DNA from: an uncultured Chloroflexia bacterium
GTDB taxonomy: Bacteria; Chloroflexota; Limnocylindria; Limnocylindrales; CSP1-4
Direction of reading: 5' to 3'
Assembly (NCBI GenBank): GCA_963720755.1
Contig: CAVRGP010000011.1
Location: 192,001-256,000 of the forward strand
DNA: 64,000 bases
In this document: positions 7,808 through 61,776 of the stretch, piece by piece
How the letters are laid out: each line of letters starts with the position of its first letter
How positions within the stretch are numbered: position 1 is the stretch's first letter
Notes under the pieces: model-generated
The model's input: the letters and a program-made list of their open reading frames with translations, nothing else
Told to the model about the DNA's origin: nothing
Database searches by the model: none
Position numbers and translations under genes: made by a program

Positions 7808-7839
7808 ATCCGGCGAGCTTGCGGTAGCATTCCTCGCCC

Positions 7840-45348: not shown

Positions 45349-46158
45349 CTAGGCGGCGGGATCGTGGCGGCCCAGGTAGGGCAGGGGGCGAGTGGCGATG
45401 TCGGCGACATCCCCTTGGCCGATCGGCACGATACCGGCCCACTTGTGGGTCTCGCTTGCCAGCGTTTCGACGAAGAAGCCGTCCGTGCCGTCAAGAAGGT
45501 GCTGATAGTGGTTCGCCTGCCACCCGTCGGCCCGTCGGGTGACGGCGCGGGTATGCGCCTGGTCGGGGTTGCGGTAGTTGTACTGCTTCACCGCCAGCTC
45601 GGTGTGCCAAACGCGCATGCCGACCGGGATCACCCGCGAATGGCGAGGGATCTCGTAGTCGTATCGGCCGGTGTCGAAGAACAGCCGGTGTTCGGGGATG
45701 CCAGGCAGCATGTAGTGGCTGGCGCAGGCCTCGATCGAGGTCACGAACGGCACGTAGTCCCAGGTCGTGCGTTCCGAGACGTGCGGGAAGAAGTGATAGA
45801 GCAGCACCGAACAGGCGTCCGCATCGTCCGGGCGATCCAGCACGGTGACGCGCGGGTCGGCACTCCAGATCTCGTCGCCATGCAGCACGGCATACCAGCG
45901 GCCGATGCCGTGGGCACGTCGCGCCTCGTGGAGCAGGAAGCCGCGCGCGCCATCCCTGAGCGGGCGGGGAATGCGGGTTTCGGCATCGCGCCAATAGCCC
46001 GCCACCCGCGCGAACGAGCGGCAGATCGCCTCGGATCGGGGCTGCATCGGACCCTCGGTGCCATCCAGCACATAGATCTCGTCACAGAAGATGCTGTGGT
46101 TGCGCAGGGCCTCCTCCAGCATGTCGGTCTCGTCCTTGATCATCATCAAACCGATCAT
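45349..46158 (-). CDS. Glycosyltransferase family 2-like protein
   Basis: N-terminal MMIKDETDML..ALRNH..FCDEIYVLD and WYAVLHGDE (a DxD-like motif variant). Confidence 0.65.
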   Translation of the reverse strand: MIGLMMIKDETDMLEEALRNHSIFCDEIYVLDGTEGPMQPRSEAICRSFARVAGYWRDAETRIPRPLRDGARGFLLHEARRAHGIGRWYAVLHGDEIWSADPRVTVLDRPDDADACSVLLYHFFPHVSERTTWDYVPFVTSIEACASHYMLPGIPEHRLFFDTGRYDYEIPRHSRVIPVGMRVWHTELAVKQYNYRNPDQAHTRAVTRRADGWQANHYQHLLDGTDGFFVETLASETHKWAGIVPIGQGDVADIATRPLPYLGRHDPAA

Positions 46159-46308
46159 GGGTCACCGTTGGAGGCGTTGTCGGCGATGGTGAGCTGGCCA
46201 GCGCGCAACCGATAGCGTACGCCCTGGCAGGCCGGGCCCCGCGTTCGACCGCCTCGTCGTCGTCGCTGTCCCCGGACCGTGACCCGCCCGGTGGCGCATC
46301 ATGGGCGG

Positions 46309-47433
46309 ATGCGGATCGCCGACTTCGCCCTCGAACGCTATTTCGCTCGCTGGGAGTTCGCAGCCCGGCATCTCCTGTGCGCGTCCGATGTGGAAGGCTA
46401 TCCGATGGCCGAGTTGCTCGACCTGGCCGACGACGAGATGCGGGGTGCGTGGGATGGGTTGCGCCTCGGCTACACCGAATCGTCCGGCCACCCGTTGCTC
46501 CGCCAGGAGATCGCCGGGCTGTACGAACGCCTCGAACCCGATGACATCCTGACCTTCGCCGGTGCCGAGGAGGCCATCTTCTGCCTCCTGAACGTCCTGG
46601 TCGGGGAGGGCGACCACGTCGTCGTGACCTGGCCCGGGTACCAGAGCCTGTACGAAATCGCCAGGGCTGCCGGTGCCGAGGTGACCCTGCACGAATTGCA
46701 GGAGCAGGATGGTTGGGCCATCGACCTCGACCGGCTGCGCGACGAGGTGGGGCCGACGACCCGGTTGATCGTCGTGAATGCGCCGCACAACCCGACCGGC
46801 ATGCTGCCCGATCGCGCCACCTTCGATGGTCTCGTGGGGATCGCCGCCGAGGCCGGCGCCCATCTCCTGGTCGACGAGGTCTACCGTGGCCTCGAGTTCG
46901 ACGAAGGCGATCGATTGCCCACCGGGGCCGACGCCCTCGAAGCGGGTATCTCGTTGGGCGTGATGTCCAAGGCCTATGCGATGGCCGGGGTACGGATCGG
47001 CTGGCTGGCAACGCGTGATCGGGACCTGCTGGCAAAGGTCGCTGCGTTCAAGGACTACACGACGATCTGCTCATCGGCCCCATCCGAGATCCTGTCGATC
47101 ATCGCGTTGCGAGCGAGCGACCGGGTGCTGGATCGCTCACGCGGGATCATCGCTGCGAACCTCGATCGGCTCGACGGCTTCTTCGACGACTGGGCCGACC
47201 GCTTCCAGTGGGTCCGTCCGCATGCCGGCTCAGTGGGGTTCCCGCGCCTGACCGTGCCGGGCGTCCGGATCGATGACTGGGCCGCCGGCCTGGTCGAGGC
47301 CGAAGGCGTCCTGCTTCTTCCCGGATCGCAGTTCGACTTCCCCGGGAACCACTTTCGGATCGGGTTCGGCCGAACGGACCTGCCGGAGGCACTGGCCCGT
47401 CTCGACGCCTACGCGCGGGCGACCCTGCGCTGA
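46309..47433 (+). CDS. PLP-dependent aminotransferase class I/II
   Basis: LGYTESSG, NAPHNPTG, VDEVY, MSKAYAMAGVRIGW, FRIGFG. Confidence 0.9.
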   Translation: MRIADFALERYFARWEFAARHLLCASDVEGYPMAELLDLADDEMRGAWDGLRLGYTESSGHPLLRQEIAGLYERLEPDDILTFAGAEEAIFCLLNVLVGEGDHVVVTWPGYQSLYEIARAAGAEVTLHELQEQDGWAIDLDRLRDEVGPTTRLIVVNAPHNPTGMLPDRATFDGLVGIAAEAGAHLLVDEVYRGLEFDEGDRLPTGADALEAGISLGVMSKAYAMAGVRIGWLATRDRDLLAKVAAFKDYTTICSSAPSEILSIIALRASDRVLDRSRGIIAANLDRLDGFFDDWADRFQWVRPHAGSVGFPRLTVPGVRIDDWAAGLVEAEGVLLLPGSQFDFPGNHFRIGFGRTDLPEALARLDAYARATLR

Positions 47434-47463
47434 TCGATCGCGGAGTGGCGATCGGGCCTGCGC

Positions 47464-48654
47464 TCAGGCTCGCTTGCGGGGGAGGTCCAGGAAGGGCAGG
47501 CCGACCACGGTCGCCTCGACCCGGCCCCGGCGCCCTTCGACAGTCCACTCGACCGCCAGCTTCGTCCCGATCGGTTCGTACTGTGGCGGCACCGAGGCGA
47601 GCGCGATCGCCTGCTTGAGGATGGGGCTCCATCCGTGGCTCGTCGCTCGACCGACCTGCCGGCCACCACCGAAGACCGGGACCGGTTCGCGGTCGACGAC
47701 CGGGCTGATCGCCGGCGGCAGACCCTGGCTGTCGTAGAGCGCCTCGATGTCGTACCAATCCAGCTGCAGGCCCACCAGTCGGCGGGCCGGACCACCGGCC
47801 TTTGCTTCGCGCTCGAGCGCGAGGCGACCGACGAAATCGCCCTTGTCGAAACTGACCAGCCGTCCCAGGCCGATCTCCGCCGGCGAATAGTGCTGCTCCG
47901 GGTTCATCGCGTGTCGGGCAGAGGTGTAGTCGACCTCCAGGAGGATGAGCCCGGCCTCAAGGCGGACGACGTCGAGCGCGAGCATGCCGGCCGGTCGGAT
48001 GGCATATGCCGTCCCGGCGGCCATCAGCGCATCCCACACGGCCACCGCGTGTTCGGTCGGGATCCAGATCTCGTATCCGAGGTCCCCGGTGTAGCCGGTC
48101 CTCGACACATCGACGGCGACGCCGGCGATGATCGACGGCCGCCGGTGGAAATAGCGCAGGTCGGCGAACGACTCGCCGCTGGCGTCCTCCAGGACAGCGC
48201 GTGACAGAGGTCCCTGGAGCGCGAGCGCGGCGGTCGCCTCGGTCTCCTCGGCGATCGCAACGTCGAGGCCGGCGCTGTTCTGGCGCAACCAGCGCAGTTG
48301 GGGGTCTGCCGCGGTCCAGCGGAACCGGTGCTCGTCGAGGCGGTGGACCGTGCCGTCGTCGACGACCTTGCCGTGCTCGTCGCACCAGGGGGTGTACATG
48401 ACGCCGCCGACGGCCAGCTTCGTCGCATCCCGGGTGATCACCCGATCGACGAGCCGGAGGGCGTCCGGCCCTGACACGATGTACTTGTAGAGCGGAGAAA
48501 CGTCGATCAGCGCCGCCGCCTCACGGATGGCGTTGTATTCGATGTCGTGGGCGTCGGCGTACACGCTTGAGGCGAAATAGCCGGACCACTCGCGCCATTG
48601 CATCTTGCGGTTGAGGGGCGAGGTGCGCGAGTGGAATGGCGTGCCGACGCTCAC
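47464..48654 (-). CDS. GcvT-family (folate-binding) aminomethyltransferase-like protein
   Basis: EYNAIREAAALIDVS, DDGTV, LQGP, SRTGYTGDLGYEIW, RLEAGL, C-terminal PF. GTG 48654 after SD AGGAG. Confidence 0.9.
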   Translation of the reverse strand: MSVGTPFHSRTSPLNRKMQWREWSGYFASSVYADAHDIEYNAIREAAALIDVSPLYKYIVSGPDALRLVDRVITRDATKLAVGGVMYTPWCDEHGKVVDDGTVHRLDEHRFRWTAADPQLRWLRQNSAGLDVAIAEETEATAALALQGPLSRAVLEDASGESFADLRYFHRRPSIIAGVAVDVSRTGYTGDLGYEIWIPTEHAVAVWDALMAAGTAYAIRPAGMLALDVVRLEAGLILLEVDYTSARHAMNPEQHYSPAEIGLGRLVSFDKGDFVGRLALEREAKAGGPARRLVGLQLDWYDIEALYDSQGLPPAISPVVDREPVPVFGGGRQVGRATSHGWSPILKQAIALASVPPQYEPIGTKLAVEWTVEGRRGRVEATVVGLPFLDLPRKRA

Positions 48655-48685
48655 GGGTTGGAGCTCCTGCTGCGGTCGCCTCACA

Positions 48686-48718
48686 GTATGCAGGAATTGT
48701 ATGCAGACTGGATGGTGG
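48686..48718. promoter_or_regulatory. Putative operator copy 1 in the gcvT-like/ABC divergent intergenic region
   Basis: GTATGCAG occurs at 48686 and 48699. GTATGCAGACTGGATGGTGG (48699-718) matches 56703-722 at 18/20. Overlaps minus-strand -10 TACAAT (48696-701). Plus-strand -10 TATACT at 48731-36. Confidence 0.6.
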
Positions 48719-48760
48719 GCGATGGGCCGGTATACTCCTCGCCCCTGAGGAGATCCCACG

Positions 48761-51700
48761 TTGGTTTCTGCGTTCGGCGCCTTGTCGGGCATCAGCCTCA
48801 GGCGCTCCCGGGCGGACTGGCCGATCGTCGCGTCGGCCGGACTCATCTGCCTCCTGGCCGCAACGCTCCTGGCGGCCGGGTCGATCTACGGCTCGGCTGT
48901 CGCCCAGGCCGGCCTGCAGCGGGCGCTGACCGACGCGTCAGTCGAGGATGGCGGCGTCACGGTCGTCACGCGAACCCAGCCCGGCCGGTCGGACGAGCTC
49001 GATGCGACCATCGCATCTGCGATCACGGAGGTCCTCGGGCCGGGTGCCGGCGCAGTCTGGCGGTTCGGGGAGTCGGAGACGTTCGCCTTGCCCGACCAGC
49101 CGACCGACGCCGTCCGCGATCTGGCCGTGCTCGGGTCCGCGGAAGCCCTCGCCGACCATGCGACGTTGCTCGGCGGGACGTGGTCAGACACTCCAGTGGG
49201 CGTCGCGACCCCGATCCAGGTCGCCGTCACCGACGTGGTGGCCGGCGAGCTGGGCCTGTCGGTCGGAGATCGCCTCGACATCGAGAGTCGCCTCGACCCG
49301 GGCACGGTCGTGCCCATCGAGATCGGCGGCATCTTCCGGATCGACGACTCGACGGACCCCTACTGGTGGGGTGATCCTCAGGTCCTCGACGGGCGGGTGA
49401 CCAGCCAGCGGTTCGACACCTATGGTCCGTTCTTCACGACGGACGCCGGTCTCGCCGCGGCCGCCGGTGGGAGATCCGTTCGAACGACGTGGCGAGCCGT
49501 CCCGGACGCGGCCGCGATCGACGCCGGCGATGTCGGCGCGATCCGGACCGGGCTGACCGAGCTTCCGGCGCGATTGGCGGCGGCCACCCCCAACGCGATC
49601 GATGTCCAGACGGGCCTGCCGAGCCTGTTGACCCGGACCGAACGGTCACTCCTGGTCAGCCGGACCGGTGTCCTGCTGCTGTCCCTGCAACTCGTGGTGC
49701 TGGCGGCCTACGCGGTCCTGCTGAGCGCTTCGTTGCTCGTCGAGCACCGGCGGATCGACAGCGCGACCCTCCGCTCCCGTGGCGCGGGGACGACGAACAT
49801 CGCGGTCCTGGCCGCGATCGAAGGACTCATGCTGGTGGTGCCAGCCGTGGCGATCGCCCCGATCCTGGCCGCGGCGCTGCTCCAGCTGTTCAACCTGATC
49901 GGGCCGCTTGCGGATATCGGCCTGACGCTTGAGCCGGCGATCACCCCCGACGCCTATGTCGCCGCTGCTGTGGCCGGGATCATCTGCCTTGCGGCGCTCC
50001 TCGTCCCGGCGGTGCGGGGCGCGCGCGCCGCAGCGTCCATCCACGGCGTCTTCGCCCGCGGCGAGACGCGGGGGATCGCCCAGCGCCTCGGGCTGGATAT
50101 CGCCCTGCTGGCCGTGGCGGCCATCGGACTCTGGCAACTCCGACACTACGGTGCTCCACTGACCCGGTCCGTCCACGGCGCGCTCGGGATCGATCCGCTC
50201 CTCGTCGCGGTGCCGGCACTCGGGCTCCTCGCGGGCGCCATTCTCGCCATCCGGCTCGTACCGCTCCTGGCGGTCGTCATCGAGCGGGCCTCGATCCGTC
50301 GCCGCAGTCTCGTCCCGTCTCTTGGCGCACGCCAGGTGGCCCGTCGGCCGCTGCGCTATTCGCGGGCCGCGCTCCTGCTGATGCTGGCCATGGCGATCGG
50401 CGTGTTCGCCGTTTCGTACGGCGCGACGTGGGTCGCGTCGCAGCGCGACCAGGCTGCCTTCCAGGTCGGCTCGGCGCTGCGGGTCCAACCCGGGATCGCC
50501 AGTGGTTCGATCCCTCGCTGGGCGCTGGATCGGGCCTATGCGGCGATCCCGGGTGTGGTGGCCAGCCTTCCGGTCGACCGTGAGACGATCCCGAGCGGTG
50601 GGACGCGCCAGACACAGCGACTCGTCGCGCTCGACGCGTCGACGGCTCCCTCGGTCGTCGAGCTCCGGCCCGACCTCGCGGACGCTTCCCTGGCGGATCT
50701 CATGGCGCCACTCGTGGCCGGTCGCCCGACGGTCGAGGCCGTCCGCCTCCCCGGCGAACCGCGAAGACTCCGCCTCACGATCGACTCGGATGTCCGCGCT
50801 CTCGAGGGCCCCGTGGTCGACGAGGCGACCAGGACGACTGAGATCGGACCGGTCGGACTCGACACGATCAAGGACTCGCCGGTCATCGGTCTCGCGGTGG
50901 TCGTCCGCGACGCGCGCGGCCTGCTCCACCGGTTCAGTGGTGGCTCGGCGCCGCTCGACGGCGACCCCCACGAGACGACCGTCCTCCTTGGGGACCCGGT
51001 CGATGCCGGACCGGCATCCTTCACGTACCCACTCGACCTCCTTGCCATCGAACTCTCGGTCAGCCTGCCGCCCGGGTATGAGGCACCCGACGCCTCGATC
51101 GACGTCGGCACACTGACGACGGCCGGGACCGACGGGACCTGGACATCGACGTCGCTCGAGCTGCCGAGCGGATGGCGGAGTACCGCAGCTCTTAACGGCG
51201 CTCCGCACGACCCGGTCGAGTCCGGGCTGCGCGGCCCGAGCCTGGATGTGACGACCGGCGGTCCCGGACTGCCGGTCCTTCCCGGAGCCACGGGCGAGGG
51301 TCCAGCCGTCGTCCTGACCTTTGCCCCGTCGGCGCTCGACGATCTCCGCCGCCCGGGGGCGGTCACCCCGGTCGTGGTCAGCGATCGGTTCCTCGAGGCG
51401 AACGGCCTCAAGGAAGGCGACCGACTCGGTCTGATCATCGCCGGCGAGCGGTATCCGGTCGTGGTCACCGCCGCGATCCGGGCCTTCCCGGGCACCGAAC
51501 CGACCGAGCCGGTGGTCCTGATCGACCTCGCCAGCTTGTCGTTGCTGCGCTTTGAGCGCAGCGGGATCGTCGCCCCGGCTGAAGAGTGGTGGCTCTCGAT
51601 CGGTGACGGCAGCACGGCGGCGGTGAGCGAGGCGCTCGCGGCCCCGCCCATCGCCAGTCGCAGCGTGGTCAGCGAGGCGGACCTGGGGAAGGCACTGTCG

Positions 51701-52144
51701 AGCGATCCGGTCGCGCTCGGGATCATCGGTGCGCTGGCGATCGGCTTCGTCGCGGCGGCGCTGTTCGCCCTCGTCGGGTTCATCGTCAGCGCGGCCGTCT
51801 CCGCCCGTGAGCGGGTGACCGAGTTCGCGCTGCTGCGGGCCCTCGGCCTGTCGTCCGGACAACTGTCGTTGTGGCTGTCGCTCGAGAACGCGGTCCTCGC
51901 CTCGGCCAGCCTGCTGGCCGGGACCGCCCTCGGGATCGCCATCGCCTGGGTCGTCCTGCCGTTCATCACGGTCACCCAGGGGGCCGCCACGCCATATCCG
52001 GCTGTGGAGATCGTCGTGCCCTGGAACGTGGTCGCGGTGCTCCTTGGCGCCGGGGCTGTCGGTCTGGCCGTGGCCATCGCCGGCCTGGCCTGGATGCTGC
52101 CGCGGATCGGTCTGGGCTCGGTCATGCGGATGAGCGAGGACTGA
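48761..52144 (+). CDS. Large FtsX/MacB-type ABC permease (1127 aa)
   Basis: Two TM clusters with LRSRGA and ERVTEFALLRALG FtsX-type motifs and large extracytoplasmic loops. TTG start after GAGGAG. Confidence 0.85.
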   Translation: MVSAFGALSGISLRRSRADWPIVASAGLICLLAATLLAAGSIYGSAVAQAGLQRALTDASVEDGGVTVVTRTQPGRSDELDATIASAITEVLGPGAGAVWRFGESETFALPDQPTDAVRDLAVLGSAEALADHATLLGGTWSDTPVGVATPIQVAVTDVVAGELGLSVGDRLDIESRLDPGTVVPIEIGGIFRIDDSTDPYWWGDPQVLDGRVTSQRFDTYGPFFTTDAGLAAAAGGRSVRTTWRAVPDAAAIDAGDVGAIRTGLTELPARLAAATPNAIDVQTGLPSLLTRTERSLLVSRTGVLLLSLQLVVLAAYAVLLSASLLVEHRRIDSATLRSRGAGTTNIAVLAAIEGLMLVVPAVAIAPILAAALLQLFNLIGPLADIGLTLEPAITPDAYVAAAVAGIICLAALLVPAVRGARAAASIHGVFARGETRGIAQRLGLDIALLAVAAIGLWQLRHYGAPLTRSVHGALGIDPLLVAVPALGLLAGAILAIRLVPLLAVVIERASIRRRSLVPSLGARQVARRPLRYSRAALLLMLAMAIGVFAVSYGATWVASQRDQAAFQVGSALRVQPGIASGSIPRWALDRAYAAIPGVVASLPVDRETIPSGGTRQTQRLVALDASTAPSVVELRPDLADASLADLMAPLVAGRPTVEAVRLPGEPRRLRLTIDSDVRALEGPVVDEATRTTEIGPVGLDTIKDSPVIGLAVVVRDARGLLHRFSGGSAPLDGDPHETTVLLGDPVDAGPASFTYPLDLLAIELSVSLPPGYEAPDASIDVGTLTTAGTDGTWTSTSLELPSGWRSTAALNGAPHDPVESGLRGPSLDVTTGGPGLPVLPGATGEGPAVVLTFAPSALDDLRRPGAVTPVVVSDRFLEANGLKEGDRLGLIIAGERYPVVVTAAIRAFPGTEPTEPVVLIDLASLSLLRFERSGIVAPAEEWWLSIGDGSTAAVSEALAAPPIASRSVVSEADLGKALSSDPVALGIIGALAIGFVAAALFALVGFIVSAAVSARERVTEFALLRALGLSSGQLSLWLSLENAVLASASLLAGTALGIAIAWVVLPFITVTQGAATPYPAVEIVVPWNVVAVLLGAGAVGLAVAIAGLAWMLPRIGLGSVMRMSED

Positions 52145-52147
52145 GCG

Positions 52148-54934
52148 GTGCGCCTCGTTGCTGCAGTCGCGGCGCTCCTGCGCCGGCTCCGAGCGGAGCG
52201 CGGGGTGATCTTCTTCGTCTTCGTCGTCGTCGCGCTCACATCCTTCGTCGTCGCTGCCGCTCCGCGACTCTACTCGCGGGTCGCCGACGACGGGCTGCGC
52301 TACGAGGTCGGTCGAGGCACGGCCATCCAGCGGAACCTGCAGTTCACGACGGTCGGGCATATCCGGGCGCAGACGGACGACCCACTGGGGGGCGTCGCCG
52401 CCCGCGGCGAGGCATTCCGCGCGGACCTGCCGGCATCGGTCGAGCGACTCGTCGGTGGAGAGAGCTTCGTCATCGAGACGAGCCGACTCGGTCTGGCCGA
52501 CCCGCCACGGTACACGACGTTCGTGACGCTCCGCCAGCAGTCGGGCCTCGACGGCCTGCTCGACCTCGCCAGCGGGCATTGGCCGGAGCGTGCCGTTCCG
52601 GCCCCCGGGGATCCCGCCGATGCGCCGCGGGTGCTCGAGGTCGCCATGTCGGCGGCGTCGGCCGCCGAGATCGGAGTCGTCCCGGGCGACCGCCTGGCGG
52701 CGAGCGTGGACCGGACCGACCCAGTCGGCAGACTGTCCGTTGTTCGAGACTCCACGCCGACGATCGAGATCGTGATCAGCGGGCTCTTCACGGTCCGCGA
52801 CCCGACCGACCCACAGTGGTTCGACGACCACAGCCTGTTCGAGGCCGCGATCGGCGGTTCAGCGGAATCCCCGATCGCGTATACGACGGCCATCTTCGCT
52901 CCGGCCGCATACGCCGACGTCCTGGGCCTCGGTCCCGCCACGCGCCTCACCTGGGATCTGTCGCTCGACGCCGATCGCCTCGATGCCCGCGACCTCGACG
53001 GGCTGACGCGCGACCTTCGACAGCTCAGCTCATCGTATGCCACGACCGGCTCGTCCCGCCCTGATGCCATCTTGCTGCATACGGGCCTTGGCGACGCGAT
53101 CGGGCGGTTTGAGGCGCAGCGAACGACCGTGGAGACGGCGCTTGCGTTGGCCGTCCTCGGTCCGGCGGCCGTGGCCGCGGGCGCGGTCGCCCTGCTCGGG
53201 ATCCTGGTCGTCCGCCGCCGCCGGCACATGCTGGCCCTGGCCCGCGGGCGTGGAGCATCGAGCGGGCAGCTGCTCGCCGCGCAGCTGGGGGAAGGACTGC
53301 TCGTGACCGTTCCCGCCGCCCTCACCGGGTTGGCGGTCGCCATCGTCCTCGTGCCCGCACCCGATACCGCCCTGTCCTCCACGGGCTCGATCCTGGTGGC
53401 GCTCGGCGCGACCGCCTTGTTGCTCCTGGCGACGTGGCCGGCGGCCAGGCGTGCCCGACGCGATCTCGAGCGCGACGACCCTCCGGTCTTCCGACTGTCC
53501 CCGCGGCGGCTGGTCTTCGAGACCCTCATCGTGGGGCTGTCGTTGAGTGCCGTCTGGCTGCTCCGCGAGCGTGGTCTGACCACGAGCGGCACCACCGGTC
53601 ACCCGCTCGGGTTCGATCCGTTCGTGGCGGCCGCGCCGCTGCTCGTCGGGTTGGCCGTCGGACTCGTCGTCATCCGATTGCTGCCCATCCCGGTGCGAGC
53701 CCTCGGCTGGGTGGCCGCGCGGCGGCGAAATCTCGTCCCGGTGCTCGGGCTTCGCAGCCTCGGCCGCCACTCGAGCGCCGGCTATCTGCCACTCCTGATC
53801 CTGAGTCTGACCGTTGCCATCGGGACGGTGTCGGTGGTGATGGCGGCGACCCTCGTGCGCGGGATGGTCCTCGTTTCGTGGCAGGACGTCGGCGCCGATC
53901 TGCGGCTCGAGGCGCCGCCCGGTCGGTCGTTCGATCCGGCCATCGACGTGCGAGCCGTGGATGGCGTCGAGGCGGCGGCCCCGGCCCTCCAGATCCCCGA
54001 CGCCGGGTTGTCGACCGGGCCGACGCAGCGATCGTCCGCGCTCCTCGTCGCCGTCGACCCGGCGGCACTCGACGACGTGGTCGCAGGCTCGCCCATGCCG
54101 CTGGCCACGGCCGCCGTGCTCGCGTGGGCACCGACCGGACCCGAGGCGGGGACGGTCGACCAGCCCATCCCTTCCATCGTGTCCGATCGGCCCGGACCCA
54201 CCGGGGCCGTGCTCGACATCGGGGATCGGTTCACCCTGATGTTCCGCGGCCAGACGATGGCGTTCACCGTCGTCGACCGTCGGTCGTCGTTCCCGGGGAT
54301 CGCCCTCGGCACCTCGTTCGTCGTGGCTCCCATGCGATCGGTCGTCGACGGCTGGAACGGGACGTCGCCGGGACCGTCGACGTGGTTCGTCCGGGGGCCC
54401 GCGGATGTCGCCGATGCGCTCCAGCAAGCGGCCGCCGGGACATCGCAGGCGACCGTCGTCTCACGCTACGAGCGACTCGCCGCCATGCGTGACGCCCCCC
54501 TCGTTGCCGCCGTCGTCGGTGGCTTTGCGCTCGCGGTCGGGATCGCCGTCCTCTACGCCTCGCTGGCGGTCGTCACGGTACTGGCGCTCGAGGCGCAGCG
54601 GCGATCCCGGGAGATGGCGTTCCTGCGGACGCTCGGTCTGACCGACCTGCAGCTCGGGCAGCTCACGATCGTCGAACAGGGTGTTCCGCTCATGTTCGCG
54701 CTGCTGATCGGGATCGCCGTCGGCCTGGGCGTGGCCTGGCTGATCGCGCCGGGGATCGACCTGACCGTCTTCAGCCACGCACAGGCCGCCATCGGCATCC
54801 AGATCGATTGGCCGACGATCGGCGAGGTGACGTTGTCGATCGTCGCGGTGGTGGTGGTGGCTGTGGCCGCCACGTCGTGGGTCGCTCGTCGGTCGGACGT
54901 CAGCCACGCACTGCGGATGGGAGAGGACGCATGA
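52148..54934 (+). CDS. Large FtsX/MacB-type ABC permease (928 aa)
   Basis: LARGRGASSGQL and RSREMAFLRTLGL motifs. Same architecture as the preceding gene. Confidence 0.85.
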   Translation: MRLVAAVAALLRRLRAERGVIFFVFVVVALTSFVVAAAPRLYSRVADDGLRYEVGRGTAIQRNLQFTTVGHIRAQTDDPLGGVAARGEAFRADLPASVERLVGGESFVIETSRLGLADPPRYTTFVTLRQQSGLDGLLDLASGHWPERAVPAPGDPADAPRVLEVAMSAASAAEIGVVPGDRLAASVDRTDPVGRLSVVRDSTPTIEIVISGLFTVRDPTDPQWFDDHSLFEAAIGGSAESPIAYTTAIFAPAAYADVLGLGPATRLTWDLSLDADRLDARDLDGLTRDLRQLSSSYATTGSSRPDAILLHTGLGDAIGRFEAQRTTVETALALAVLGPAAVAAGAVALLGILVVRRRRHMLALARGRGASSGQLLAAQLGEGLLVTVPAALTGLAVAIVLVPAPDTALSSTGSILVALGATALLLLATWPAARRARRDLERDDPPVFRLSPRRLVFETLIVGLSLSAVWLLRERGLTTSGTTGHPLGFDPFVAAAPLLVGLAVGLVVIRLLPIPVRALGWVAARRRNLVPVLGLRSLGRHSSAGYLPLLILSLTVAIGTVSVVMAATLVRGMVLVSWQDVGADLRLEAPPGRSFDPAIDVRAVDGVEAAAPALQIPDAGLSTGPTQRSSALLVAVDPAALDDVVAGSPMPLATAAVLAWAPTGPEAGTVDQPIPSIVSDRPGPTGAVLDIGDRFTLMFRGQTMAFTVVDRRSSFPGIALGTSFVVAPMRSVVDGWNGTSPGPSTWFVRGPADVADALQQAAAGTSQATVVSRYERLAAMRDAPLVAAVVGGFALAVGIAVLYASLAVVTVLALEAQRRSREMAFLRTLGLTDLQLGQLTIVEQGVPLMFALLIGIAVGLGVAWLIAPGIDLTVFSHAQAAIGIQIDWPTIGEVTLSIVAVVVVAVAATSWVARRSDVSHALRMGEDA

Positions 54935-54956
54935 TGTCGTCGAACATGAGGTCCCG

Positions 54957-55916
54957 ATGAACGAGCCGCTTCCCGAGATCATCGACCTCCCGACCGCCGA
55001 ACGTCGGGCCAGGACGCCTCGCCCACGATTCGGCGGGCGCGCCATCATCGTGTGCGACAACCTGGTCAAGATCTACAAGGTCGCCGATCTCGAGGTGGTC
55101 GCCCTCCAGGGTCTCGACCTCCTCGTCGAACCGGGTGAATTCATCGCCCTCAACGGTGCGTCCGGTTCGGGTAAGAGCACGCTCCTGAACATCCTCGGGG
55201 GTCTCGATGTGCCGACCGCCGGCCGCGCCGTGGTGGCCGGCCATGAGCTCACCGACATCGGCTCGCGCGAACAGACGCGCTACCTCCGACACGTCATCGG
55301 GTTCGTGTGGCAGCAGACGTCACGAAACCTCATGCCCTACCTGACGGCGCTCGAGAACGTCGCACTGCCGATGGTCCTCGATGGGGTCTCGTCGCGCGAC
55401 CGGGCCGCCTTCGCCCGTGAGCTGCTCGAGCGAGTCGGTCTCGCGGATCGCGCGGATCACCGACCTGACGCGATGTCGGGCGGCCAACAACAGCGTGTTT
55501 CGATCGCGGTCGCCCTCGCCAATCGCCCCGAGGTGCTCCTTGCCGACGAGCCGACCGGCGAGCTGGATACGACGACGGCGCACGAGATCTTCGACCTGTT
55601 CCGGAGTCTGAACCGAGAGCTCGGGATCACGATCGTCGTGGCGACCCACGATGCGCTCATCAGTGACCAGGTGAACCGCACCGTCGCCATCCGCGATGGT
55701 CGGGTCTCGAGTGAGGTGCTGCGGGAGCAGCGCATCTCGGATATCGGCGACCACCACCTGGTGTCGACCGAATATGCCGTCCTCGACCGGGCCGGCCGGC
55801 TCCAGCTGCCCAGGAGCCAGGTCGACGCTCTCCGGCTCGAACAGCGAGTCCGGCTCGAACTGCTCGACGACCACATCGAGATCTGGCCCGACCGCGACGA
55901 TCGGGGCGACCGATGA
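54957..55916 (+). CDS. LolD/MacB-type ABC ATPase with AbrB/MraZ-like C-terminal tail
   Basis: GASGSGKS, MSGGQQQRV, LADEPTGELD, ATHD. Tail LDRAGRLQLP...IEIWP. Confidence 0.9.
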   Translation: MNEPLPEIIDLPTAERRARTPRPRFGGRAIIVCDNLVKIYKVADLEVVALQGLDLLVEPGEFIALNGASGSGKSTLLNILGGLDVPTAGRAVVAGHELTDIGSREQTRYLRHVIGFVWQQTSRNLMPYLTALENVALPMVLDGVSSRDRAAFARELLERVGLADRADHRPDAMSGGQQQRVSIAVALANRPEVLLADEPTGELDTTTAHEIFDLFRSLNRELGITIVVATHDALISDQVNRTVAIRDGRVSSEVLREQRISDIGDHHLVSTEYAVLDRAGRLQLPRSQVDALRLEQRVRLELLDDHIEIWPDRDDRGDR

Positions 55917-56647
55917 GCGGGACCTCTCGCCTGGCTCTCGGGCGGACGGATCCGTCGGCTCCGACCGGCCCGATCATCGAGACGCGCGGGTTGACCCGCG
56001 ACTTCCAGGTGGGTTCGAGCGTCGTCCACGCCCTGGTCGACGTCGATCTGCGTGCCGAGCGCGGGGAGCTCCTCGCCGTGCGCGGGCGGTCGGGATCGGG
56101 CAAGACGACCCTCCTGTCGGTCCTGGGCGGCCTGGACCGGCCGACGGCGGGGCAGGTGCTGGTCGACGGACGCTCGGTCGGGGAGATGGGTCAGGGGGAG
56201 CTGGTCGAATTGCGACGGCGCAAGATCGGCTTCATCTTCCAGGCGTTCGGCCTGCTCTCGATCCTGTCGGCCGCCGAGAACGTCGAAGTGCCCCTCCGAC
56301 TCGTCGCGGCGGATCCGGGCGAGCGCGACGAGCGCGTCGTGGTCCTCCTCGGCCTCGTCGGGTTGAGCGACCGCGCCAGGCACCGGCCCCATGAGCTTTC
56401 GGGCGGGGAGCAACAGCGGGTCGCGATCGCTCGCGCTCTGGCCAATCGGCCGGACCTCCTGCTCGCCGACGAGCCGACGGGCCAACTCGATTCGGCCACC
56501 GGCCGGTCGATCATGAGCCTGCTCCGAGCCGTCGTTCGGAGCGAGGGGTTGACCGCGATCATCGCCACGCACGATCCCCTGCTCATTGACCTCGCCGACA
56601 GGGTGATCGAACTGCGTGATGGGCGGCTGGTCGGTGACACCGCCTGA
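55913..56647 (+). CDS. LolD/MacB-type ABC ATPase
   Basis: GRSGSGKT, LSGGEQQRVAIARAL, ADEPTGQLD, ATHD. Confidence 0.92.
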   Translation: MSGTSRLALGRTDPSAPTGPIIETRGLTRDFQVGSSVVHALVDVDLRAERGELLAVRGRSGSGKTTLLSVLGGLDRPTAGQVLVDGRSVGEMGQGELVELRRRKIGFIFQAFGLLSILSAAENVEVPLRLVAADPGERDERVVVLLGLVGLSDRARHRPHELSGGEQQRVAIARALANRPDLLLADEPTGQLDSATGRSIMSLLRAVVRSEGLTAIIATHDPLLIDLADRVIELRDGRLVGDTA

Positions 56648-56686
56648 CCCGGGCATTCGTGCCCATCTGTGTCGGGGTACGTCGAG

Positions 56687-56722
56687 TAGACTTGCATCAA
56701 ACGTATGCAGTCTGGATAGTGG
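56687..56722 (+). promoter_or_regulatory. -10 element and putative operator copy 2 upstream of the flavoprotein pair
   Basis: TAGACT (56687-92), then inverted repeat TGCAT-N7-ATGCA (56693-709) and GTATGCAGTCTGGATAGTGG (56703-722). Confidence 0.6.
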
Positions 56723-56737
56723 CGGAGGACGCTCGCC

Positions 56738-58360
56738 TTGGCCCAGTCGTACGACGCGATCATCATCGGCGGAGGCCACAACGGCCTGATCAGTGCCGCC
56801 TATCTCGCACGGGGCGGGATGAAGACGCTCGTGCTGGAGCAGCGCCACGTCCTCGGCGGGGCGGCGGTCACCGAGGAGATCTTCCCGGGCTTCAGGTTCT
56901 CCGTCTTCAGCTACGTCGTCAGCCTGCTGCGCCCGGAGATCATCCGGGACCTCGAGCTCCCGAAGCATGGCCTGGACATCCTGCCGCTGGATGGGACGTT
57001 CACGCCGCTCCGCCCGGGCGAGGGGCCGGCCGCGGGTGGGGGCGACTACCTGTGGCGGGTCAACGACCATGGCCGGACGATCCGGGAGCTTCGACGTTGG
57101 TCGGCGGCTGACGCCGAGGCGTACGAGGAATATGGCCAGCTCATGGTCGAGATGGCTCGCTTCATCAAGCCGATCCTGGCGATCACCCCGCCGGACCTGA
57201 ACAGCCTCGACCTTCGCCCGATGATGCCGCTCGCCGGTCTCGCCCGCCGCTTCCAGCAGCTGCCGGAACGCCAGCGGGCCGTGTTCATCCAACTGATGAC
57301 GATGAGCGCGTCCGACTTCCTCGACCAATGGTTCGAGACCGACCCGCTCAAGGCGACGATGGCCGCGTCGGGGATCATCGGGACCTACCAGGGCGTCAAG
57401 AGCCCGGGGACGGCCTACGTCCTGCTCCATCACTACATGGGCGAGATCGATGGGGCCTTCCGCGCCTGGGGCATCCCGAAAGGCGGGACCGGCGGGGTGA
57501 GCGCGGCGATCGCCAACGCGGCCCGTGCGCTCGGGGCAGAGATCCGGATGGAGTCGCCGGTCGTCGAGATCATGGTCAAGGGCGGTCGGGCGATCGGGGT
57601 CGTTCTCGACTCGGGCGAGGAGATCTACGCGAGTTCCGTTCTGTCATCGCTCGATCCGAACCGGACCTTCCTCGGGTTGCTCCAACCGGGGGTTCTCGAA
57701 CCATCGTTCGAGGACGATGTTCGCCGGTTCAAGTTCCGCGGCTCGTCCGGCAAGGTCAACCTCGCCGTCGACCGGCTGCCCGATTTCACGAGTCTGCCCG
57801 GCGTCGGTGAGCACCTCCGTGGAGCGATCAGCTTCAGCCCGTCGATCGATGACATGGAGACGGCCTACGACGACGCCAAGTACGGGCGGTTCAGTCGCAA
57901 GCCGTACATCGACATGATCATCCCGACCCTTGTCGATCCGACGATGGCGCCGCCGGGCAAGCACGTGATCAGCTGCTTCGTCCAATACGCGCCGTACAAG
58001 CTGGCACCCGAACTCGGGACATGGGACGACCAGCGTGAGGCGTTCGGCGACGCGGTCATCGACCGGATCGCCGAATTCGCGCCGAATATCCGCGAGATCA
58101 TCCTGCACCGCAACGTCCAGACACCGCTCGACATCGAGCGGACGACCGGCCTGACCGAGGGCAACATCTTCCAGGGGGAGCTGTCATTGGAGCAGCTCTT
58201 CTTCAATCGACCCGTCCCCGGGTACGCGCGCTTCCGAACGCCGATCCGCGACCTGTGGCTGTGCGGTTCGGCGACCCATCCTGGCGGCGGGATCATGGGC
58301 GCCAACGGCCGGATCGCCGCGCTGGAGGTCCTCCGGGCCCGCGGTCGCAAGGTGGCCTGA
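56738..58360 (+). CDS. FAD-dependent oxidoreductase, phytoene-desaturase/PYROXD2-like (subunit A)
   Basis: IIIGGGHNGL Rossmann motif, LGGAAVTEE, PKGGTG, DPTMAPPGKH, GSATHPGGGIMGANG. TTG start after GGAGG. Confidence 0.9.
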   Translation: MAQSYDAIIIGGGHNGLISAAYLARGGMKTLVLEQRHVLGGAAVTEEIFPGFRFSVFSYVVSLLRPEIIRDLELPKHGLDILPLDGTFTPLRPGEGPAAGGGDYLWRVNDHGRTIRELRRWSAADAEAYEEYGQLMVEMARFIKPILAITPPDLNSLDLRPMMPLAGLARRFQQLPERQRAVFIQLMTMSASDFLDQWFETDPLKATMAASGIIGTYQGVKSPGTAYVLLHHYMGEIDGAFRAWGIPKGGTGGVSAAIANAARALGAEIRMESPVVEIMVKGGRAIGVVLDSGEEIYASSVLSSLDPNRTFLGLLQPGVLEPSFEDDVRRFKFRGSSGKVNLAVDRLPDFTSLPGVGEHLRGAISFSPSIDDMETAYDDAKYGRFSRKPYIDMIIPTLVDPTMAPPGKHVISCFVQYAPYKLAPELGTWDDQREAFGDAVIDRIAEFAPNIREIILHRNVQTPLDIERTTGLTEGNIFQGELSLEQLFFNRPVPGYARFRTPIRDLWLCGSATHPGGGIMGANGRIAALEVLRARGRKVA

Positions 58361-58362
58361 CG

Positions 58363-59970
58363 ATGACGACCAGCGACTACGACGCCATCGTCATCGGTGG
58401 CGGCCACAACGGCCTTGTCACCGCCGCCTATCTCGGCCGAGCCGGCCTGCGCACGGTCGTCCTCGAGCGTCGCCCGACCGTCGGAGGCGCGGCGGCGACA
58501 TCCGAACTGGCGCCGGGCGCCTTCGTCCCGACCCTCGCGCACACCGTGGGTCGGCTCCGCCCGTCGGTCGTGCGCGACCTCGATCTCAAGCGCCATGGCC
58601 TGTCGCTCATCGGGCCGGACGTCCGGGCCTTCGCCCCGGACCTCGACGGGGGAGCGGTCGTCCTGTGGGGCGATGCGGGACGCACGGCGGAGGGGCTTCG
58701 ACCCAGATCGGCCGCTGACGCCGACGCGTACGAAGGGTACGACCGCCTCGTTCGTACCCTCGCCGGGTTCCTTGGCGGGCTTGCCGGCCGTACGCCGCCG
58801 GATATCGACAAGCCGGGCATGGGTGACGCGATCGCGGGCCTCCAGCTCGGCCGGACGTATCGGGGTCTCGGGCGAGATGCCGGCCGGACGATCACCCGCG
58901 TCCTGCCGATGGCGATCGCCGATTTCCTCGCCGAATCGTTCGAGTCGGACGCGGTCCAGGCCGCGCTCGCGTGGCGCGCCGTGCAGTACACGGCCATGGG
59001 TCCATGGTCGGCCGGCACGACCGCGGTCCTGCTTATCGACGCCGCCGGGAATGACGGCGGCGCGGCCGGCCAGACGGTCTACGCGCGGGGCGGTCCCGGA
59101 GCCTTGAGCCTGGCCCTGGCGGCATCCGCGACGGCGGCCGGTGTCGAGATCCGGACAGGCGCGGACGTCATCGCCATCAGCTCGCGCGACGGCAGGGCCA
59201 CGGGTGTCGTGCTGGCCGGCGGCGAGGAGCTGACCGCCCGGGCCGTCGTGGCCGGGATCGATCCGAAGACGACCCTGACTCGCCTTGCCGATCCCGTCGC
59301 CATCGGGCCGACCCTGCTCTGGCGGGCCGGCAACCTCCGGATGCCGGGCACCGTCGCGAAGGTCAACCTCGTCCTGTCCGAGACGCCGCGGTTCACCGCG
59401 GCCGGCGATGATCCGAGCCTGATCCGTGGCCGGATCCTGATCGCTCCCGGGATCGATGCCCTCGAGCGGGCGCACGACGACGCCAAGTTCGGCCGTCCGT
59501 CCGCGGCCCCGGTGATGGAGGCGACGATCCCGTCGCTTGCCGACCCCACCCTCGTCGAAGGCGCGGAACCCGGGACGCAGGTCATGAGCGTCATCGTCCA
59601 GTACGCGCCGTACGCCCTCCGCGACGGGACCTGGGACGAACGGCGTGCGGCCTTCGGTGATCAGGTCGTGGCCGCGCTCGACGTGTATGCGCCCGGACTG
59701 GCTGGCCTCGTGACCGCTCGGCAGGTCGTGACGCCGCTCGATCTGGAACGGGATCACGGGCTTTCGGGTGGCCATCCGATGCACGGAGAACACGGCCTGG
59801 ACCAGTTCTTCCTGTGGCGCCCGCTGCTCGGGCATGCCCGCTACCGGCTGGCCATCGACGGGCTGTACCTTTCGGGCGCGGGATCGCATCCGGGTGGCGG
59901 GATCACCGGCCAGAACGGCCAGAACGCGGCCAGGGAGATCGTGTCCGACCTCAAGAAGCGTCGCCGCTGA
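58363..59970 (+). CDS. FAD-dependent oxidoreductase, phytoene-desaturase/PYROXD2-like (subunit B)
   Basis: IVIGGGHNGL, TPLDLERDHGL, GAGSHPGGGITGQNG. Divergent paralog of the upstream gene. Confidence 0.9.
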   Translation: MTTSDYDAIVIGGGHNGLVTAAYLGRAGLRTVVLERRPTVGGAAATSELAPGAFVPTLAHTVGRLRPSVVRDLDLKRHGLSLIGPDVRAFAPDLDGGAVVLWGDAGRTAEGLRPRSAADADAYEGYDRLVRTLAGFLGGLAGRTPPDIDKPGMGDAIAGLQLGRTYRGLGRDAGRTITRVLPMAIADFLAESFESDAVQAALAWRAVQYTAMGPWSAGTTAVLLIDAAGNDGGAAGQTVYARGGPGALSLALAASATAAGVEIRTGADVIAISSRDGRATGVVLAGGEELTARAVVAGIDPKTTLTRLADPVAIGPTLLWRAGNLRMPGTVAKVNLVLSETPRFTAAGDDPSLIRGRILIAPGIDALERAHDDAKFGRPSAAPVMEATIPSLADPTLVEGAEPGTQVMSVIVQYAPYALRDGTWDERRAAFGDQVVAALDVYAPGLAGLVTARQVVTPLDLERDHGLSGGHPMHGEHGLDQFFLWRPLLGHARYRLAIDGLYLSGAGSHPGGGITGQNGQNAAREIVSDLKKRRR

Positions 59971-60045
59971 TCAGCCGCCTTCGAGGTGTCGTGGTGGACC
60001 GCAGGCGTCCCATTCGGGTCCCCGTCTCGCTACCATCGTAGGGTC

Positions 60046-60768
60046 ATGACCTCGTCGCCGACGTCGCCCTCATCGGGATCCCAGGTGGCCCGCGCGGCCG
60101 CCGATCCCGTCTCGGACGAGCACCGGGTATTCACGTTCACCCTGGAACGGATCGTCTTCTTCTCGGACGCCGTGTTCGCGATCGCGATCACCCTGCTGTC
60201 CATCGACCTGCGCCTGCCCGACCTCCCGCCGGGTCAGTCCGACGCCTCGTTCCTCGCCGCTCTCGGCGGTCTTGTGCCGTCCTTCGGCGCGTTCATCCTG
60301 AGTTTCATCGTCATCGCCGCCTATTGGATCGGCCACTATCGGACGATGCGCTACGTGACCGATCCGGACGGCCGCTTCGTCGCCATCAACTTCGCCTTCC
60401 TGTTCTGCATCGTGCTCATGCCGTTCGCGACATCGATCATCGCCACCGAGGGCGACCTCGCGAGTGGTGCGATCGTGTACGCAAGCCTTGGCGTGGCGAC
60501 CGGGCTGACGTCGACCCTGCTGTGGGTCTACCCGGCCCGGATCGCCCACCTCGTTGTCCCGGCGGTCACCCCGTCGATCGCCCGGTACGTCACCGATCGG
60601 TTGGCGGTGGTCCCGATCGTGTTCGCGCTGTCGATCCCGGCTGCATTGATCAACCCGCGCCTCGCCTGGCTCCTGTGGTTCGCCGCCGCCCCGATCCAGG
60701 CGATCGTGACTCGACGCCATCGGACGGGCGGCCGGCTCGGGCTCGGTCGTCTGCGGCCGAGCCCATGA
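60046..60768 (+). CDS. TMEM175-family (DUF1211) potassium channel
   Basis: ERIVFFSDAVFAIAITLL signature, YWIGH, LMPFAT. Confidence 0.85.
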   Translation: MTSSPTSPSSGSQVARAAADPVSDEHRVFTFTLERIVFFSDAVFAIAITLLSIDLRLPDLPPGQSDASFLAALGGLVPSFGAFILSFIVIAAYWIGHYRTMRYVTDPDGRFVAINFAFLFCIVLMPFATSIIATEGDLASGAIVYASLGVATGLTSTLLWVYPARIAHLVVPAVTPSIARYVTDRLAVVPIVFALSIPAALINPRLAWLLWFAAAPIQAIVTRRHRTGGRLGLGRLRPSP

Positions 60769-60807
60769 GCTGGGAACCCCGCGCTGCGGGTCGCTCGCGC
60801 GGCCGGG

Positions 60808-61776
60808 TCAGTCGTCCGGTGGCACGTCGGGGAGACGGAACTCCCAGGTGCGGAGCCGCTTGAGCAGGCTCCGGCCGGTCAGGTCAAGGTGGATCGGCGT
60901 GATCGCGATGCGTCGATTGATGACCGCGTGGAAATCCGTCCCGGGGACGGCCAGACCTGACGGTGGCGGTCCGCCGATCCAGAAGTAGGGGATGCCCCGC
61001 GGGTCCTGGCGTTCGATGAGTTGGTCCTGATAGACGCGTTTGCCGAGTCTCGTCACCTCGAACGCCGCGTCCGTCCCCGGTTCGACCGCCGGAACGTTGA
61101 CGTTGATGAGTTCGCCCGGCGACAGTCCGTGCTCCAGGATGTTGAGCGCGACCGCCGCGGCGGCCCGGCCGGCCAGCGAGAAGTCGGGATGCTCGTAGTA
61201 CTCCTGCGAGATCGCGAAGGCCGGGCAGCTGTTGATGACGGCCTCCATGGCCGCGCTGACCGTCCCCGAATAGGTGATGTCGTCGCCGAGGTTCGCCCCG
61301 TAGTTGATCCCGGATGCGACGAGGTCGAAGCCGTGGTCGAAGTAGCCAAGGAAGGCGAGGCTGACCGCGTCCGTGGGCGAACCATCCACGGAGTAGGCGA
61401 GCGATCCATCACCGAGCGTCCGTTCGCGGACCCGCAGCGGTCGCATGAGTGTCTTCTGGTGGCCGACCGCGCTCTGGTTGGTGTCCGGGGCGACGACCGT
61501 CACCTCGCCCAGCGGCTCGAGCGCCTGCTTGAGTGCGAGCAGGCCGCGCGACTCGACGCCGTCGTCGTTGGTGATCAGGATCCTGGGCCGGCTCGTCCAC
61601 TCCCCGAGGGGTCGAGCATGCGCTCGCAGGGCGCGTGGGCCACCGCGCGCCGCACCTCCCGCGACCGGTTCCCCACGCTCCTTGTCGACGTCGCGGCGTT
61701 CCGATCGCGCGCGTTCGCGAGTCATGTCCGGCACCTCAGCCGAACGCTCCTTGTCCGTTGCCTCGTCTTCGGTCAC
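60808..61776 (-). CDS. surE: 5'/3'-nucleotidase SurE (N-terminally extended)
   Basis: ILITNDDG, VVAPDTNQSAVG, DGSPTDAV, SGINYGANLGDDITYSGTVSAAME. GTG 61776 overlaps the AI-2E stop. Confidence 0.93.
   Translation of the reverse strand: MTEDEATDKERSAEVPDMTRERARSERRDVDKERGEPVAGGAARGGPRALRAHARPLGEWTSRPRILITNDDGVESRGLLALKQALEPLGEVTVVAPDTNQSAVGHQKTLMRPLRVRERTLGDGSLAYSVDGSPTDAVSLAFLGYFDHGFDLVASGINYGANLGDDITYSGTVSAAMEAVINSCPAFAISQEYYEHPDFSLAGRAAAAVALNILEHGLSPGELINVNVPAVEPGTDAAFEVTRLGKRVYQDQLIERQDPRGIPYFWIGGPPPSGLAVPGTDFHAVINRRIAITPIHLDLTGRSLLKRLRTWEFRLPDVPPDD

Follow-up and report, generated by a model that had tools for sequence, protein, structure and literature searches.

In a 64,000-nucleotide stretch of DNA from an uncultured Chloroflexia bacterium of the order Limnocylindrales (contig CAVRGP010000011.1, positions 192,001 to 256,000; hereafter the window), three genes were found that together may encode a split, folate-coupled, flavin-dependent N-demethylase. 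They encode a GcvT-like folate-binding protein (GcvTL; 396 aa; 47464..48654, minus strand) and two paralogous CrtI/PYROXD2-like flavin adenine dinucleotide (FAD) proteins, FlavA (540 aa; 56738..58360, plus strand) and FlavB (535 aa; 58363..59970, plus strand). We estimate a probability of about 0.6 that the three genes form one conserved unit with this function. A preliminary description of this DNA had proposed a folate-coupled split demethylase built from a different flavoprotein family; gene linkage across genomes and a modeled FlavA–GcvTL complex support that proposal, with the chemistry predicted. The window is part of contig C11 of a 3.0-Mb metagenome-assembled genome (G000) that is 93.6% complete and was searched as a whole. 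Gene calls in the window were based on Pfam and NCBIfam scans, and the G+C content of the region holding the three genes is about 70%.

The linkage of the trio was determined in two sets of loci. For the sister set, FlavA was searched in 41 related genomes and 12 loci were taken with long flanks; for the wide set, one genome per species was scanned and the 80 best FlavA loci, with 67–90% identity, were kept (according to their record titles, 39 Acidobacteriota, 29 Chloroflexota, 10 Actinomycetota, 1 Chlamydiota, and 1 unlabeled). GcvTL and the FlavA-FlavB pair occurred together in 12/12 sister loci, the twelfth (G010) being confirmed on an extended region, and five of the genomes concerned, all from one sister genus, measure 1.0–1.4 Mb. 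In eight of the 12, the GcvTL and FlavA genes stood back to back with their start codons 88–99 bp apart. FlavB adjoined FlavA in all 80 loci of the wide set, and GcvTL was found at most 7 kb upstream of FlavA in 70 of them, divergently oriented in 68 and co-directional in 2. Of the 10 loci without GcvTL, five are represented by less than 2.2 kb of DNA upstream of FlavA and one by 4.3 kb, and another (L026) has the ATP-binding cassette (ABC) insertion also seen in the window. The GcvTL-flavoprotein linkage spans three phyla, and the co-occurrence that the preliminary description had proposed to look for was thereby observed in both sets.

A further pairing of the same kind was detected in four sister loci. 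There, a third FlavA paralogue, about 50% identical to FlavA, was located directly after a GcvT-like gene of its own (4/4), indicating that the partnership is a habit of the family rather than of one locus. This single-flavoprotein module lies at positions 8401–11284 of L109 and also occurs in L110, L111, and L112 (the four loci being from genomes G016, G024, G010, and G017); its GcvT-like protein is 38–42% identical to GcvTL, and an additional GcvT-like gene lies beside it in L112. In G000, no such module was found. Two loci from Gaiellaceae (L051, 4567–6772, and L055, 4546–6763) carry, upstream of FlavA-FlavB, tandem GcvT-like genes that share about 64% and 33% identity with GcvTL. In addition, one database protein of 778 aa (P0124) contains a Rieske oxygenase C terminus, a GCV_T domain, and an FAD-binding Rossmann start; rather than a true fusion, it probably represents read-through of three neighboring co-directional genes, and even so it displays the gene order Rieske-GcvT-flavoprotein.

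Neighboring genes were clustered over 92 related loci using a crude open reading frame (ORF) caller, and cluster representatives were scanned. In 12 acidobacterial loci, the gene directly after FlavB encodes the formyl-tetrahydrofolate deformylase PurU (414 bits versus a cut-off of 223). PurU also accompanies the genes of known clusters for methylamine and betaine catabolism. In 10 acidobacterial loci, a Rieske oxygenase was detected that matched the glycine-betaine monooxygenase GbcA best; its score of 127 bits is far below the cut-off, so that it can be called GbcA-like only. An APC amino-acid permease gene lies near the trio in 18 acidobacterial loci. Moreover, a protein of about 499 aa is encoded near the trio in 12 acidobacterial loci (L071, 11722–13221, and 11 others), where it is placed after PurU, and searches of Pfam, NCBIfam, and the ESM Atlas all gave no lead for it.

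GcvTL matched PF01571 (202 bits) and PF08669 (51.5 bits), both over the cut-off, and failed the gcvT equivalog test (TIGR00528, 160 versus a cut-off of 235.85; PRK00389, 216 versus 300). The preliminary description had noted a stand-alone GcvT-family gene with neither gcvH nor gcvP beside it, and this was confirmed, as the canonical gcvT-gcvH-gcvP operon lies elsewhere on this contig, at G000:C11:700125-704100, at a distance of about 445 kb. The GcvTL ORF (460 aa) is open from position 48846, yet its GCV_T domain begins only at residue 80, while the GTG codon at 48654 has a GGAG nine bases upstream and yields a 396-aa protein that aligns with its relatives from residue 1. Because the domain onset, the GGAG, and the first residue of the relatives agree, translation most likely starts at 48654 rather than at 48846. 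The closest solved chain to GcvTL was the C-terminal tetrahydrofolate (THF) domain of trimethylamine N-oxide (TMAO) demethylase (9q59), with an E value of 1e-52, or 9e-77 when a 59-sequence profile was used; T-proteins (1woo) came next, followed by the folate domains of dimethylglycine oxidase (DMGO), dimethylglycine dehydrogenase (DMGDH), and SoxA, and the E values for DMGO/DMGDH/sarcosine-type folate domains ranged from 1e-22 to 1e-30. The motifs DDG and SRTGYTGdlGYE are conserved in GcvTL, residues D99, D100, G101, and R185-E195 do not vary among 59 sequences, and the DDG and RTGYTG-type motifs align with their counterparts in 9q59 and 1woo. We take the DDG and RTGYTGE/D-G-F/Y-E motifs to be the folate site.

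Five GCV_T genes were identified in G000, namely the canonical gcvT, three fusions of 812–858 aa joining a D-amino-acid oxidase (DAO)-type domain to a GcvT domain, and GcvTL. The three DAO-GcvT fusions, of the dimethylglycine/sarcosine dehydrogenase type, are located at G000:C15:284000-297000 (L105) and G000:C6:177000-185000 (L106), and the fusion in L106 adjoins a gene resembling the beta subunit of electron-transfer flavoprotein (ETF); methylamine-type demethylases are plentiful in this genome. In the 1.0–1.4-Mb genomes of the sister genus, GcvTL was kept in 5/5 and a second gcvT-like match was found in 3/5, and a DAO-GcvT fusion was found in none of the five.

As the preliminary description had stated, the two flavoproteins are tandem phytoene-desaturase-like paralogues unaccompanied by crtB or crtE: FlavA and FlavB share 41% identity over 534 residues, and PF00494 (phytoene/squalene synthase) had no match in the 93.6%-complete genome. 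FlavB starts with the ATG at 58363, not at 58255, two bases after the FlavA stop. FlavA matched PF01593, PF13450, and PF01266; PF01266 covers just the first 40 residues or so, the Rossmann start, and the whole-length matches were PF01593 and the CrtI fold, and by Pfam and fold comparison the protein is not of the DAO-family type. Orthologues of FlavA are 67–90% identical across the three phyla, and within the trio FlavA is conserved best. Both flavoproteins retain, without variation, an N-terminal GxGxxG and a C-terminal HPGGG FAD motif. The invariant FlavA motifs HHYMGE, RGSSGKVN, and TEGNIFQGE are replaced in FlavB, which has xxAAxDG at the position of HHYMGE and LTGGHxxHGE at that of TEGNIFQGE; these are putative active-site motifs. 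The CrtI, CrtO, and CrtD models all scored far under their cut-offs for both proteins: against the phytoene desaturase family TIGR02734 (cut-off 238.1), FlavA scored 100.5 and FlavB 90.7, and against the CrtO ketolase family NF045689 (cut-off 1000), which was the best NCBIfam row, they scored 293.5 and 219.7, respectively.

The AlphaFold2 model of FlavA had a mean predicted local distance difference test (pLDDT) value of 81. A Foldseek search with this model placed CrtD (4rep; TM score 0.72–0.78) and CrtI (4dgk) on top, and nicotine oxidoreductase, monoamine oxidases, and putrescine oxidase ranked below these carotenoid desaturases. The fold is therefore compatible with an isoprenoid as well as with an amine as substrate, and it is the gene context that decides. 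In the ESM Atlas, the two top clusters (score 0.99) are both auto-named PYROXD2, and their domain set recurs in 17 of 30 feature matches to FlavA.

FlavA and GcvTL were modeled together as two chains, using a 59-row alignment per chain in the same genome order, in three runs and with three controls. The interface score (ipSAE) of the pair was 0.68 (median of three runs), compared with 0.00 for the best of the three controls; the partner pLDDT was at least 93, and contact agreement between runs was at least 88%. This mark was reached by 58/80 solved complexes and 2/110 mismatched pairs in a calibration that is rough only, since custom alignments were used here. The modeled interface on FlavA includes residues invariant in 59 sequences (P66, R70, P83, D110, D400, P401, P406, and G407). 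We know of no solved complex of a CrtI-type protein with a GcvT protein, so that a memorized structure is unlikely to account for the result. The model supports docking of GcvTL on FlavA as a separate, unfused chain. The preliminary description had suggested modeling all three proteins as one complex; the modeling covered the FlavA–GcvTL pair, which it supports.

In the proposed mechanism, the PYROXD2/CrtI-type FAD subunit, that is, FlavA alone or together with FlavB, would oxidize the N-methyl group of a methylated amine, either secondary or tertiary, to an iminium, and GcvTL, docked on FlavA, would then move the one-carbon unit onto THF to give 5,10-methylene-THF. FlavB would be either a second subunit of the heteromer or a sister enzyme that acts on the next methylation state. 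PurU, in the loci that have it, may recycle the folate pool. A quaternary amine cannot be oxidized by a flavin, and where the Rieske oxygenase is present, it could first take one methyl group off such an amine.

Substrate class, regulon, and stoichiometry of the trio are likewise inferred. The substrate is likely an N-methylated amino acid or omega-amino acid, and our leading guesses are methyl-lysine, methyl-aminobutyrate/valerate, or glycine-derived compounds. A methylated lysine or an amino-butyrate/valerate-type substrate is indicated by the aminotransferase, decarboxylase, and permease genes in the context, by the separate enzymes of the DMGDH and sarcosine dehydrogenase type in G000, and by data on human PYROXD2. 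Betaine-derived glycine compounds would also fit the GbcA-like oxygenase and the small genomes. As for the human data, a PYROXD2 missense single-nucleotide polymorphism accounts for about 50% of plasma N6-methyllysine variance and for 48% of that of N6,N6-dimethyllysine (PMC8109053), the PYROXD2 locus is tied to trimethylamine and dimethylamine (PMC3169529), N-methylpipecolate is linked to PYROXD2 (PMC5780481), and the biochemical function of PYROXD2 is described as little known (PMC8777681). By analogy, these metabolites point to the same substrate class as the bacterial gene context. A full-text literature search, whose coverage did not extend to subscription journals, returned no title or abstract opening giving a biochemical function for PYROXD2 or for the bacterial trio.

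Other explanations of the same genes were weighed against a split N-demethylase. FlavA and FlavB could be separate enzymes for successive methyl groups (tertiary to secondary to primary amine) that share GcvTL as their one-carbon acceptor. FAD motifs kept in both paralogues next to differing putative active-site motifs would suit this arrangement, and the single-flavoprotein module of the four sister loci shows that one flavoprotein can suffice; yet FlavB stands next to FlavA in 80/80 loci, with its start two bases past the FlavA stop in the window, and such tight gene adjacency is typical of subunits made in a fixed ratio. We regard two separate enzymes as unlikely. It is a good deal more improbable that GcvTL is a DmdA/LigM-like S- or O-demethylase passing the methyl group to THF while the flavoproteins oxidize the demethylated product or another intermediate. 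The preliminary description had allowed for an S-methylated substrate, and the DmdA, LigM, and DesA models do match GcvTL at E values of 8e-38 to 1e-24, all below their cut-offs; GcvTL is, however, much closer to the THF domain of TMAO demethylase, to T-protein, and to the DMGO and SoxA domains, all of which accept carbon at the formaldehyde level. Moreover, the neighbors of the trio are amine and amino-acid genes (the APC permease, the GbcA-like Rieske oxygenase, a class-III aminotransferase, and a pyridoxal phosphate [PLP] decarboxylase), and FlavA is modeled in direct contact with GcvTL.

The least probable explanation, to which we give hardly any credence, is that the flavoproteins are isoprenoid desaturases or ketolases of the carotenoid/hopanoid type and that GcvTL is their neighbor by chance or through shared regulation. 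This outcome had been named in the preliminary description as one that would speak against its proposal. It is suggested by the CrtO ketolase as best NCBIfam row and by CrtD 4rep and CrtI 4dgk as best structural matches, but the family scores lie far under the cut-offs (293 versus 1000 and 100 versus 238), phytoene/squalene synthase had no match in the genome, the flavoproteins are linked to GcvTL across three phyla and to PurU in 12 loci, and the trio is kept in genomes of 1.0–1.4 Mb.

Several observations weigh against the split N-demethylase itself. A complete GcvTL copy is absent from three loci (L070, L074, and L078) although their upstream DNA extends over the full 7 kb, and because genomes in the sets are related, locus counts are not independent trials. 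No gene for an electron acceptor, whether ETF or a cytochrome, is conserved beside the trio. Among longer proteins matching GcvTL, a candidate fusion of GcvTL with a CrtI-type protein was sought and none was robust among the best 120 of 182 (E values up to 1e-20), the fusions among these matches being with DUF1989, DAO, SoxA, and serine hydroxymethyltransferase. The solved folds nearest to FlavA are the carotenoid desaturases 4rep and 4dgk, with amine oxidases just below, and its PYROXD2 label comes from automatic cluster names in the ESM Atlas, not from an alignment to the human protein. Three DAO-GcvT fusion enzymes are already present in G000, and the trio is therefore not needed for dimethylglycine or sarcosine in this bacterium. 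Finally, the GcvT-family enzymes DmdA and LigM demethylate sulfur or oxygen compounds without a flavoprotein, and the heteroatom is therefore not fixed.

The GcvTL gene and the flavoprotein pair of the window are separated by about 8 kb and carry a shared sequence in their upstream regions. The preliminary description had reported an 18/20 match between these regions, and we found it at 48699–48718 and 56703–56722, both on the plus strand, with the similarity extending to about 35–45 nt; when about 1500 random pairs of equally sized window segments were compared, one reached a match this good. The left copy (48686..48722, plus strand; core 48689-48713) lies inside the 106-bp divergent region between GcvTL and an FtsX-family permease gene (FtsX1), and the right copy (56689..56722, plus strand; core 56693-56717) ends just ahead of the FlavA ribosome-binding site, 16–21 nt upstream of the FlavA start. 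The core, TGCA-N7-TATGCAG-N-CTGGAT, has 17 specified bases and three exact matches in the 3.0-Mb genome, and the reversed pattern, used as a control, had one match at up to two mismatches. A four-gene FtsX/ABC operon, which the preliminary description had not mentioned, fills the 8 kb from one copy to the other and is encoded on the same strand as the flavoproteins. It was found in this slot elsewhere only in G010 (L019 plus L113) and L026.

The number of element copies varied with the width of the spacer. In Limnocylindrales loci the element always points toward FlavA, and it was found beside the GcvTL start in L018, L020, L025, L027, L028, L034, L035, L039, L044, and L113. Compact spacers have a single copy (L021, L023, and L033), and widened spacers have two, one next to GcvTL and the other about 45 nt upstream of FlavA (L018, L020, L025, L027, L035, and L039); L034 and L044 likewise have a second copy, with one mismatch, and the window and G010 (L019 plus L113) have the same two-copy arrangement. 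In L020, the two copies are only about 130 bp apart and enclose no cargo. The cargo between the copies varies by genome: the FtsX/ABC operon in the window, G010, and L026, a PLP decarboxylase gene in L028, L031, and L038, a class-III aminotransferase gene in L034 and L041, an M20 hydrolase gene in L040, and nothing recognizable in other loci of this slot. Among the related loci examined, the element was not seen in the sister genus or in other phyla. It is best read as a lineage-specific promoter or operator, and the simplest reading of the arrangement is that an ancestral bidirectional promoter/operator was duplicated, so that the gap between the copies is a slot for accessory genes. In the window, the FtsX/ABC operon would have been inserted into an ancestral divergent control region of about 100 bp, a promoter/operator copy being retained on each side. 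The two copies described earlier as a shared motif 8 kb apart are real, and one ancestral bidirectional region duplicated around an inserted operon explains them best. If so, a duplicated operator around a variable slot is a natural example of gene recruitment into an existing regulon.

The third exact copy in the genome lies at C13:134869-134893 and stops 19 nt short of a class-III omega-aminotransferase gene, which is followed by genes for two coenzyme A (CoA)-transferase subunits, with an aldehyde dehydrogenase gene just upstream. Within this locus (L108, G000:C13:126000-142000), the motif occupies 8870–8894, the omega-aminotransferase gene 8913–10277, and the aldehyde dehydrogenase gene 6817–8397; the small ORFs between the latter two (155–163 aa) had no family match. 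Such a set of enzymes would fit the disposal of a primary omega-amine after methyl loss. Because the element also stands ahead of the omega-aminotransferase/CoA-transferase operon, it suggests a small amine-catabolic regulon. No regulator gene was recognized near the element copies, the small ORFs at the third copy having no Pfam match. An Rfam scan of 46000–61000 (E values up to 0.1) detected no riboswitch or other known RNA, and strict scans of 47300–61000 for sigma-70 promoters and intrinsic terminators gave zero matches each.

The inserted FtsX/ABC exporter operon (48761–56647) encodes two very large FtsX-family permeases and two ATPases, all on the plus strand: FtsX1 (1127 aa; 48761..52144; PF02687), the first gene, FtsX-family permease 2 (928 aa; 52148..54934; PF02687), and two ABC ATPases of the MacB/LolD type (54957..55916 and 55913..56647; both PF00005), for the first of which LolD and MacB were the best NCBIfam rows, below their cut-offs. 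Downstream of FlavB, 15 nt after its end, a TMEM175-family potassium channel gene was found (59986..60768, plus strand; PF06736). Among the 92 related loci, a gene of this family follows FlavB only in L018, L020, L038, and L045, and it is, from its distribution, a lineage-specific neighbor. On the other side, the PLP aminotransferase gene that had been described as converging on GcvTL is indeed present at 46279..47433 (plus strand; class I/II; PF00155, 146 bits), with PRK07324, GntC, and VioD as best NCBIfam rows, all below their cut-offs, but it is not in the conserved unit: a convergent aminotransferase occurs in 10 of the 92 loci, all from Limnocylindrales. This gene and a FecCD/ABC importer were both considered as members of the unit and rejected because their synteny is confined to Limnocylindrales. 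Between the importer genes and the aminotransferase gene lies an ORF of 269 aa (45349–46158, minus strand) with a coding-like G+C content at third codon positions (GC3) and no Pfam match. No RNA runs covering window positions 47464–57400 were listed, and DNA of this segment is present in four soil-metagenome DNA runs, all from one study.

A wider reading joins these observations. PYROXD2-type flavoproteins, both bacterial and human mitochondrial, might be the catalytic subunits of an unrecognized class of N-methyl-amine demethylases, which in prokaryotes would act as a heteromer of FlavA, FlavB, and a docked GcvT protein that channels the methyl carbon to folate; the substrates would be N-methylated lysine, pipecolate, and omega-amino acids, not dimethylglycine or sarcosine, and the Limnocylindrales operator would be a plug-in slot for exporter, decarboxylase, or transaminase cargo. 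We offer this wider reading tentatively, as a conjecture with somewhat less than an even chance. If the trio is a split demethylase, a reaction would be assigned to a large family of "phytoene desaturase-like" proteins that is routinely misannotated in soil and freshwater bacteria, including the genome-streamlined Limnocylindria, which keep very few such genes, and human PYROXD2 would gain a concrete, testable reaction.

Known systems resemble the trio in part. In DMGO/DMGDH, sarcosine dehydrogenase, and 4-methylaminobutanoate oxidase (1pj5, 4pab, and 5l46), a DAO-type FAD domain is fused to a GcvT-type folate domain; the trio would likewise combine an FAD amine-oxidizing module with a GcvT-fold THF site for the methyl-derived carbon, but it has a CrtI/PYROXD2 (PF01593) flavoprotein, two paralogues of it, and a separate, divergently transcribed folate protein. 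The heterotetrameric sarcosine oxidase SoxABDG (1vrq and 2gag) is similarly a multisubunit, folate-coupled flavin demethylase with its GcvT-like site and catalytic flavin on different chains, whereas its SoxA joins a GcvT domain to a nucleotide-binding domain, its SoxB is of the DAO type, and no counterparts of SoxD or SoxG were seen with the trio. TMAO demethylase (Tdm; 9q59) provides, over full length, the closest solved relative of GcvTL in its C-terminal THF domain, which captures formaldehyde on THF; its catalytic half, however, is a DUF1989 metal domain fused in cis, and it has no flavin. The CrtI/CrtD/CrtO family (4dgk and 4rep) shares the overall fold and the FAD motifs of FlavA, while the trio differs in scoring below the family cut-offs, in its amine and one-carbon gene context, and in a genome without a PF00494 match. 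The clusters closest to FlavA in the ESM Atlas were auto-named after PYROXD2, in humans an orphan mitochondrial flavoprotein; humans have one such gene, as opposed to the bacterial pair, and we know of no dedicated GcvT partner for the human protein. Set beside these systems, the combination of a stand-alone folate protein and two CrtI-type flavoproteins would, if the proposal is true, constitute a third architecture of folate-coupled demethylation.

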